IMG/VR virus record: IMGVR_UViG_3300010348_001841
From: a virus
Lineage: Duplodnaviria; Caudoviricetes
Reading direction: 5' to 3' (one strand)
Length of the DNA stretch: 64,000 bases
Shown one piece after another: positions 43,795-44,472 of the stretch (position 1 is its first letter; each line of letters opens with the position of its first letter). The notes beneath the pieces were generated by a model that was not told where the DNA came from, ran no database searches, and was given only the letters and a program-made list of their open reading frames with translations. A program made the translations under genes and the position numbers.

Positions 43795-44472
43795 TTACCA
43801 GAGTAGGTCAAAGTAACCACGCATAACCTTTGATACGGTTGAAGTTTTATCACTATTGTGATCTTTAACGGTATCGTCTTGGAAGCGATATGTTCTAATC
43901 TTATCGCCTCTCATTCCCGAACCAACCTGTTGCTTACGCTCAGCCGATAATGATTGATTTTTTTCTCGTCTGTCATTTTGTTGAAGAAGTTGAATCATTG
44001 TCGATTTTGCTTCCTCAAGACTTGTTTGGCGTGAACGATTTTGTGAAGTAGTTACAAGGCCTGTTTCTATATGAATGACTCTACAAGAATTTTGATGTTT
44101 ATTCCTGTGTTGGCCACCAGCGCCTGTGCCACTAAACCATTCTATACGAAAATCTTTATCAGTATAATCTCTCTTCTGTATAGATGGATCAATTACCGCA
44201 ACGGTAACTGTACTTGTATGGACTCTTCCACGTTTTTCAGTAGGTGGAATTCGCTGAATTCTATGCCCACCTGCTTCATTTTGTAACTGTGTTAAATTTT
44301 CCCCGACTATTTCGATATGCAATTCGCCGGGCATGTCTCTAATCACACGATTGAGTCATCCTACGCGATCAAAATGTCGTTGATATGCTTGTGCAAGATC
44401 TTTCACGAAGAGCTTGCTATCTTCTCCGCCCTCAGCGGATCTAATTTCAACTATCCTGCGTTGAGTTGTCAT
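43795..44472 (-). CDS. class I release factor lacking domain 1, with in-frame TGA at codon 39
   Basis: [30 protein letters not shown] and IRTY. Confidence 0.85.

Follow-up and report, generated by a model that had tools for sequence, protein, structure and literature searches.

A conserved in-frame TGA at a tryptophan position in the RF1-type release factor genes of huge, tRNA-rich phages

Why should the gene of a release factor (RF) carry a stop codon within its own reading frame, and how might such a gene yield a full-length protein? The question is raised by the window analysed here, a 64,000-nt stretch of DNA (IMGVR_UViG_3300010348_001841) from a huge, tRNA-rich phage of activated sludge; all coordinates below are positions in this window, and the RF gene lies on the minus strand. 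The gene opens with an ATG at 44472-44470 and runs through 38 codons, ending in DRVG, to a TGA at codon 39; beyond it the frame is unchanged for 186 codons, with the GGQ motif intact, up to a TAA at 43797-43795 (Table 1). This layout had been proposed in a sequence-only reading of the window and can be read directly from the letters. In the list of open reading frames (ORFs) made with translation table 11, the locus appears only as a 183-residue piece that begins at a GTG at 44346, four codons past the TGA. That an RF gene carries a conserved in-frame TGA at a Trp position is confirmed by the comparisons described below; our reading of it is that the codon probably serves programmed UGA-to-Trp readthrough, with a yield set by host RF2 on one side and Trp-tRNA on the other.

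With the TGA read as sense, the full-length product has 225 residues and matches two Pfam families—PCRF (PF03462; 80 bits, residues 6-91), whose match runs across the stop, and the RF-1/GGQ domain (PF00472; 67 bits, residues 104-205). Among NCBIfam profiles the best match is RF1 (NF001859/TIGR00019), with 180.6 bits over positions 106-333 of 347 and a cut-off of 400 that is missed, and RF2 (106 bits) and PrfH (52 bits) rank below it; all three scores lie under the full-length cut-offs because domain 1, the N-terminal part of RF1 (about 105 residues), is absent from the phage protein, as the sequence-only reading had said. When the family profile is compared with solved chains, RF1 reaches 264 bits, RF2 about 165, PrfH 87, and ArfB about 30. 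The AlphaFold (AF2) model has a predicted local distance difference test (pLDDT) score of 90.6, and Foldseek places it at a template modelling (TM) score of 0.92 to ribosome-bound RF1. The tripeptide PPT occupies the expected PxT position (residues 76-78). Like HTS and the Gln of RIQR, it is maintained throughout the clade (84 distinct coding sequences), as are the GGE/D tip and GGQ (residues 119-121), the latter invariant; no SPF-like motif is found in the phage protein. By fold and motifs, the gene product is a domain-1-less RF1-type class-I release factor, and in four complete relatives there is exactly one gene with RF domains per genome, and none has RF2. The model places a strand at residues 4-12 and a helix at residues 17-37, whose GGED tip corresponds to the stop-codon reader of RF1; as both the strand and the helix lie ahead of the TGA, a product begun past the stop would lose part of the decoding domain.

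The stop is conserved well beyond this one phage. IMG/VR holds 254 relatives, and in the best 80 of the 254 (57-70% identity), from which codons were counted, the aligned codon is TGA in 80/80; across distinct coding sequences codon 39 is TGA in 81 of 84. The sequence-only reading had allowed for a sequencing error or a recent pseudogene, with TGG in all homologues, and had suggested that reads be compared and selection be measured on both sides of the stop—the homologues carry TGA, and contigs of two independent activated-sludge studies, at about 250-270x depth, have identical letters across it. Pairwise ratios of nonsynonymous to synonymous substitution (dN/dS) are 0.155 upstream (codons 6-38) and 0.178 downstream (codons 40-78), with off-frame controls at 1.06 and 1.57, although synonymous sites are near saturation (pS about 0.7). 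The other conserved Trp codons of the gene are never TGA (codon 112 is TGG in 83/84, codon 225 in 82/82); TGA and TGG are therefore not interchangeable here, and the stop itself is selected. Trp occupies the position of codon 39 in 97 of the 122 RF1-like cluster representatives that cover it, as expected of a typical RF1 Trp position, and on this alignment Trp is the ancestral residue. Judged from these comparisons, conservation of the TGA goes far beyond chance. The "full-length" proteins of 222-225 residues found in databases are code-4 calls on short contigs, and the record is reproduced only with TGA=W. Two runs labelled RNA-Seq contain just short, low-identity pieces of the stretch, and a megablast of the locus against GenBank phages returned no match.

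More distant relatives vary in where the stop is placed. In short RF1-like phage genes at 44-49% identity, codon 39 is TGG (L086, L089), Ala (L092), or TGA (L087). At 32-38% identity stand the RF genes of four published huge-phage genomes of 630-735 kb, LR745206 (L119), LR756502 (L120), LR756504 (L122), and LR756501 (L123), which have Phe or Asn at position 39 and are interrupted in frame by one or two TGAs, placed at Trp positions 41, 46, or 54. In a maximum-likelihood tree these four RFs form a separate supported clade, and the main clade is uniformly TGA at 39; with a separate clade carrying TGA at other Trp codons, the arrangement must have arisen at least twice. Coding density in 49-kb stretches of LR745206 and LR756501 shows no gain when TGA is taken as sense. 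The same four factors have QTS in place of HTS, and the Gln before PPT is often replaced; judging from these motifs, their codon reading may differ.

The relatives share a start as well as a stop: an ATG lies exactly 35 codons upstream of the TGA in 65 of 77, and a Shine-Dalgarno (SD)-like motif precedes the RF start in 65/77. No conserved restart codon was found past the TGA, and 40 of the 77 relatives have no in-frame start within 40 codons. In the codons right after the TGA (consensus x-x-R-L-I), conservation is confined to the first two positions, and the third varies freely. Immediately before the stop the relatives encode Gly, as GGC (58), GGT (12), GGA (6), or GGG (1), and the base that follows, counted in 80 unique contexts (77 of them TGA), is A in 52, G in 18, C in 9, and T in 1. 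The leaky UGA-C context noted in the sequence-only reading thus holds for the window and does not extend to the relatives, with C in only 9/80. The sole bias is avoidance of U 3' of the stop (1/80); in E. coli termination signals, U after the stop gives the strongest terminating context. No nucleotide motif is conserved upstream of the TGA among relatives, RNAalifold yields no consensus structure at -6..+90 or -60..+30 around the stop, and the folding z-score downstream of the stop (-1.45) is not lower than elsewhere in the gene (-1.8). Of the marks by which readthrough genes are recognized, this family therefore shows an in-frame stop conserved in diverged homologues with same-frame purifying selection on both sides, and lacks a conserved stimulatory context or downstream RNA structure.

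Elsewhere in these genomes TGA behaves as an ordinary stop. TGA closes 13 of the 43 long minus-strand ORFs of the window, and for most of them a further stop follows within 0-18 codons; at the conserved C-termini of orthologous genes in related loci, TAA (129), TGA (43), and TAG (15) alternate, and the RF gene's own terminator is TGA in seven relatives. For the complete relative G001 (362,810 bp, with terminal repeats), code 11 gives a greedy coding density of 0.865, against 0.871 when TGA counts as sense; TGA ends 173 of its 553 ORFs, and 37 ORFs can be joined across one or two TGAs, one of which is the RF gene. Pfam searches found no domain across the stop in ten other TGA-joined ORFs of G001, a weak negative as most of the proteins have no Pfam family, and no stop-spanning domain in three TGA-joined and four TAG-joined ORFs of the window, most of which likewise lack one. 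A crude tblastn screen of the window for TGA-spanning conserved ORFs was dominated by off-frame and antisense shadows, and only the RF gene came out clean. A table-4 genome would have TGA frequently within genes and not as terminator, and these phages have neither trait. By all these counts the RF gene is the only supported in-frame TGA in genomes that use TGA as a stop.

How, then, would the factor be made? We infer Trp insertion, the competing players, and a regulatory purpose, and the gating of expression is suggested by conservation of the stop. A ribosome that inserts Trp at the UGA of codon 39 would go on to the full-length factor, and this would be the only route to it; termination at the UGA would release a peptide of 38 residues in place of a functional factor. 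As UGA should lie outside the specificity of RF1-type factors, the yield would be set by competition between host RF2 and Trp-tRNA. Trp-tRNAs supplied by the phage that read UGA better, by virtue of a 4-bp anticodon stem or, in one relative, a UCA anticodon, would join this competition. By default the gate would keep the factor scarce, and weak UGA termination or abundant phage tRNAs would raise its level.

Candidates for such decoders lie close at hand, as the window is a tRNA island—57 tRNA calls and one transfer-messenger RNA (tmRNA) in 64 kb, all on the minus strand (ARAGORN). Its tRNA-Trp(CCA) has G73, an encoded CCA end, and a U11-A24 pair in the D stem, and its top anticodon-stem pair, C27/U43, is unpaired, which leaves a stem of 4 bp. 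In E. coli tRNA-Trp(CCA), unpinning 27:43 raises UGA readthrough about 2.5-fold in vivo; G43U and C27A are among the tRNA-Trp variants shown to mediate readthrough, the Hirsh G24A suppressor is cited in the same work, and 27:43 is unpaired in about 8-9% of bacterial tRNA-Trp genes (PMC13092985). The relative G003 has a 77-nt Trp-like tRNA(UCA) with C27/A43 unpaired, and in the parts of that genome examined there is no CCA-anticodon tRNA-Trp. Near RF genes, 27:43 is unpaired in 7 of 19 distinct Trp-type tRNAs, a count that includes the UCA tRNA and one ambiguous case. A tRNA-Trp lies within 5 kb of the RF gene in 11 of 80 loci, about as the local density of tRNAs predicts, and so we claim no linkage between the two. 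In three loci of one subclade (L048 4907-4979, L058 1480-1553, and L072 4715-4788), a tRNA-Trp(CCA) with C27/U43 unpaired stands directly upstream of the TGA-containing RF gene and ends 22-300 nt ahead of the first aligned RF codon.

Several points weigh against programmed readthrough fed by phage tRNAs. The 4-bp stem is not universal, the tRNA-Trp genes of G001, G002, and G004 having five pairs, and the enrichment of unpaired 27:43 over bacteria is only suggestive because several of the phages are close kin and the counts are partly phylogenetically non-independent. An amber-suppressor-type tRNA is an odd companion for added RF1 activity: the tRNA(CUA) of the window is kept in G001, G002, and G004, all three of which encode the RF1-type factor too. 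Among the stops of G001, TAG is the least used (53/553), and Pfam confirmed no in-frame TAG gene among the four TAG-joined candidates of the window. The relatives yielded no conserved stimulatory element, whether RNA structure or nucleotide context, so the efficiency of readthrough may not exceed a basal few per cent. The full-length protein is a predicted one, and UAA/UAG specificity is an assumption for a factor with PPT, a tripeptide present in 40/44 short-family representatives and 0/74 full-length RF1 representatives.

That assumption bears directly on negative autoregulation, in which a PPT factor that is omnipotent would read UGA too and terminate its own synthesis at codon 39. The distribution of PPT suggests that specificity may differ from that of RF1, the stop sits at several positions within the family, as a feedback device would predict, and there is a Mimivirus precedent (PMC3521657). 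We nevertheless regard autoregulation as unlikely: the remaining RF1 reading elements (the GGE/D tip, the Gln of RIQR, and HTS) are kept, the family profile scores RF1 well above RF2 and the protein has no SPF-like motif, and no sequence feature suggests that a G could be read at position two of the stop codon. A broader possibility is that the TGA is one of many, through general or late-phase TGA-to-Trp recoding of the code-4 kind. The Trp-like tRNA(UCA) of G003 and the UGA-prone tRNA-Trp of the window would suit it, code 4 is what gene callers apply to many homologues on short contigs, and in the "Jade" phages RF1 occurs together with a UGA suppressor (bioRxiv 10.1101/2021.08.26.457843). The genomes speak otherwise, however—TGA terminates about a third of genes, orthologue ends alternate between TGA and TAA/TAG, the whole 363-kb relative gains no coding density, its ten TGA-joined ORFs have no spanning domain, and within the RF gene TGA occurs at codon 39 only, other Trp codons never being TGA. 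General recoding is largely refuted, and we give it very little probability.

The fragment called by table 11 invites a reading in two pieces, with internal initiation at GTG 44346 or ATG 44334 giving a product of 179-183 residues, alone or with a 38-residue subunit. The GTG of the window lies four codons past the TGA, and databases hold gene calls of 179-187 residues; yet the restart codon is not conserved, with more than half of the 77 relatives lacking one in reach, the codons right after the TGA are under protein-level selection, and the truncated product would be without strand beta-1 and helix alpha-5 of domain 2. We find this scarcely credible. A lone in-frame stop is also the classic mark of a decaying pseudogene, or it may be a sequencing error, but TGA in 80/80 relatives, its recovery in two studies at about 250x, and purifying selection on both sides refute both. 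Two other routes past the stop were considered and rejected. For selenocysteine, there is no conserved hairpin, the UCA tRNA of G003 is an ordinary 77-nt tRNA, and homologues have Trp; for transcript slippage or editing, the site offers neither a homopolymer nor a TadA-like UACG loop.

Programmed readthrough can be carried further into a more tentative proposal, which we consider possible and still rather doubtful: the UGA gate may act as a sensor of termination reprogramming run by the phage, a feed-forward loop that huge phages would have evolved repeatedly, using various Trp codons. Expression of the tRNA island would supply UGA-prone Trp-tRNAs (with a 4-bp stem or UCA anticodon) that make UGA leaky; leaky UGA alone would then switch on the RF1-type factor, which would take over termination at UAA and UAG, with tmRNA, sometimes SmpB, and the amber-suppressor-type tRNA co-encoded. 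If this is true, a stop codon encodes the feed-forward loop by which the infected cell changes its termination regime. Apart from this proposal, a stop that persists through saturating divergence in hundreds of RF1-like genes of huge phages, and that was gained independently at other Trp codons, points to cross-wired control, in which synthesis of one termination factor would report the activity of the other, RF2, and of Trp-tRNA; it offers a directly testable handle on the takeover of host translation by tRNA-rich phages. The gate also accounts for the systematic mis-calling of these genes, as 180-residue fragments or as code-4 proteins, and the locus provides a natural test case for the reading of UGA by a tRNA-Trp with a 4-bp anticodon stem.

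The surroundings of the RF gene hold further parts of the termination and rescue machinery. The phage tmRNA shares its strand with the RF gene and lies about 0.5 kb downstream, and in eight of the closest related loci a tmRNA lies -6 to +1352 nt past the RF gene. In G002 (261189-263542; L100), the RF gene, SmpB, and tmRNA stand in a row on one strand, with SmpB between the other two, an arrangement suggestive of a compact module for termination and rescue. As to the host, the sludge habitat and the beta-type tmRNA give no more than hints. At its 5' end the RF gene is overlapped by an ORF of 227 residues, which is missing from a co-occurring strain contig; the two diverge at 44448, and the first eight RF codons differ. 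In the variant strain, the 3' end of a tRNA-Asp is followed by AAAGGAAGTGAA and then by ATG AAG CGC ATT (MKRIIEIRAAEGG, the family consensus), with the same TGA. It follows that insertion of the ORF rewrote the N-terminus of the RF without breaking the frame. The ORF is probably a mobile, homing-endonuclease-like insertion, a predicted function that rests on motifs, as Pfam gives it no family. It is one of three small endonuclease-like ORFs around the RF and tmRNA genes (44447-45130 on the minus strand, 42393-42890 on the plus strand, and 41830-42171 on the minus strand); two have YIGKG/WNKGK-type motifs and no Pfam match, and one is an HNH at 31 bits. ORF 42393-42890 overlaps the 3' end of the tmRNA gene.

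The tRNA island contains some irregular calls as well. Adjacent class-II-like tRNAs at 60543-60629 and 60635-60721 (minus strand) have long variable arms and near-identical D arms; one, of 87 nt, has a CCA (Trp) anticodon and G73, and the other has an 8-nt anticodon loop (ARAGORN "tgta"). A long-arm, UGG-reading tRNA is not expected to be charged with Trp. Three long calls, Ile(tat) of 94 nt (13223-13316), Cys of 92 nt (48094-48185), and Ser of 95 nt (49821-49915), may be intron-bearing or mis-called. The ARAGORN "tRNA-Stop(tta)" at 38609-38680 was rejected as a false positive on account of mismatches in its acceptor stem, its overlap with the CUA tRNA, and its absence from the Rfam matches.

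Table 1. Positions of the release factor gene and of associated features in the 64,000-nt window.
Feature	Position	Strand	Basis or remark
SD-like GAGGA	44482..44486	-	9 nt upstream of start codon; read directly
RF codons 1-38 (ATG to GGA)	44359..44472	-	domain 2 strand beta-1 and helix alpha-5, GGED tip
In-frame TGA, codon 39, next base C (44355)	44356..44358	-	conserved RF1 Trp position
RF codons 40-225 and TAA	43795..44355	-	rest of domain 2 (PPT), domain 3 (GGQ), domain 4
tRNA-Trp(CCA), candidate UGA decoder	55130..55204	-	ARAGORN cloverleaf
tRNA(CUA), amber-suppressor type	38680..38755	-	ARAGORN; Rfam tRNA 55 bits
Phage tmRNA, two-piece/permuted beta type	42857..43299	-	ARAGORN; Rfam RF01850 119 bits, RF04321 118 bits
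227-residue ORF over RF start	44447..45130	-	overlaps first eight RF codons; absent from strain variant

In the phage literature we searched, RF1 and RF2 genes are mentioned, an internal stop in them is not, and no paper on a phage gate was found. The obvious bacterial comparison is prfB, in which RF2 reads the UGA in its own gene and is self-regulating for that reason. As in the prfB +1 frameshift (SD-CUU-UGA-C), an early in-frame UGA interrupts an RF gene, full length requires failed termination, and output would rise at low RF2 activity. The phage gene differs in that it has no frame change, no CUU slippery codon, and no upstream SD-like stimulator; its product is RF1-type, and the stop would be read by host RF2 rather than by its own product. 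The analogy to the RF2 frameshift drawn in the sequence-only reading therefore stands as far as full length needs UGA as sense, and fails for self-regulation, which is not expected of an RF1-type factor. Recoding signals in RF genes are textbook knowledge for RF2 and have been shown for the eRF1-like gene of Mimivirus, and RF1-type genes were thought to be free of them; in a survey of >12,000 bacterial genomes, prfA showed no programmed recoding (PMC12421855).

For the candidate decoder, the nearest parallel is the E. coli tRNA-Trp with unpinned 27:43. The tRNA-Trp of the window likewise has C27/U43 unpaired, together with A24; the published test was of C27A, however, the phage tRNA is a candidate decoder, and the bacterial tRNA-Trp genes with unpaired 27:43 counted above are ordinary genes without recoding (PMC13092985). 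As a protein, the factor resembles PrfH (RF-H) in its size class (about 200-230 residues), its lack of domain 1, and its GGQ domain; unlike PrfH (TIGR03072), against which it scores 51.7 bits with a cut-off of 166.65, it keeps the codon-reading motifs of RF1.

Two of the comparisons are viral. In the "Jade" phages (Borges et al., bioRxiv 10.1101/2021.08.26.457843), as here, a phage RF1 is associated with a capacity to decode UGA by tRNA, and the module of RF1, tRNA(UCA), and tryptophanyl-tRNA synthetase (TrpRS) consists of standard-code genes that serve many recoded late genes; in our phages, by contrast, the sole supported in-frame TGA is that of the RF gene itself, and TGA otherwise serves the genomes as a stop. 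The closest precedent is Mimivirus R726 and Megavirus mg280 (Jeudy et al. 2012, PMC3521657), a viral RF gene with conserved UGA readthrough. For R726, the authors proposed that Trp is inserted and that a viral tRNA-Trp, whose D arm has a Hirsh-like A, decodes the UGA (PMC3521657), and the tRNA-Trp of the window also has U11-A24. The Mimivirus factor is of the eRF1/aRF1 type, reads all three stops and is thus self-regulating, and needs a frameshift in addition, whereas the phage factor is a bacterial RF1-type protein without domain 1 whose synthesis would call for readthrough only.
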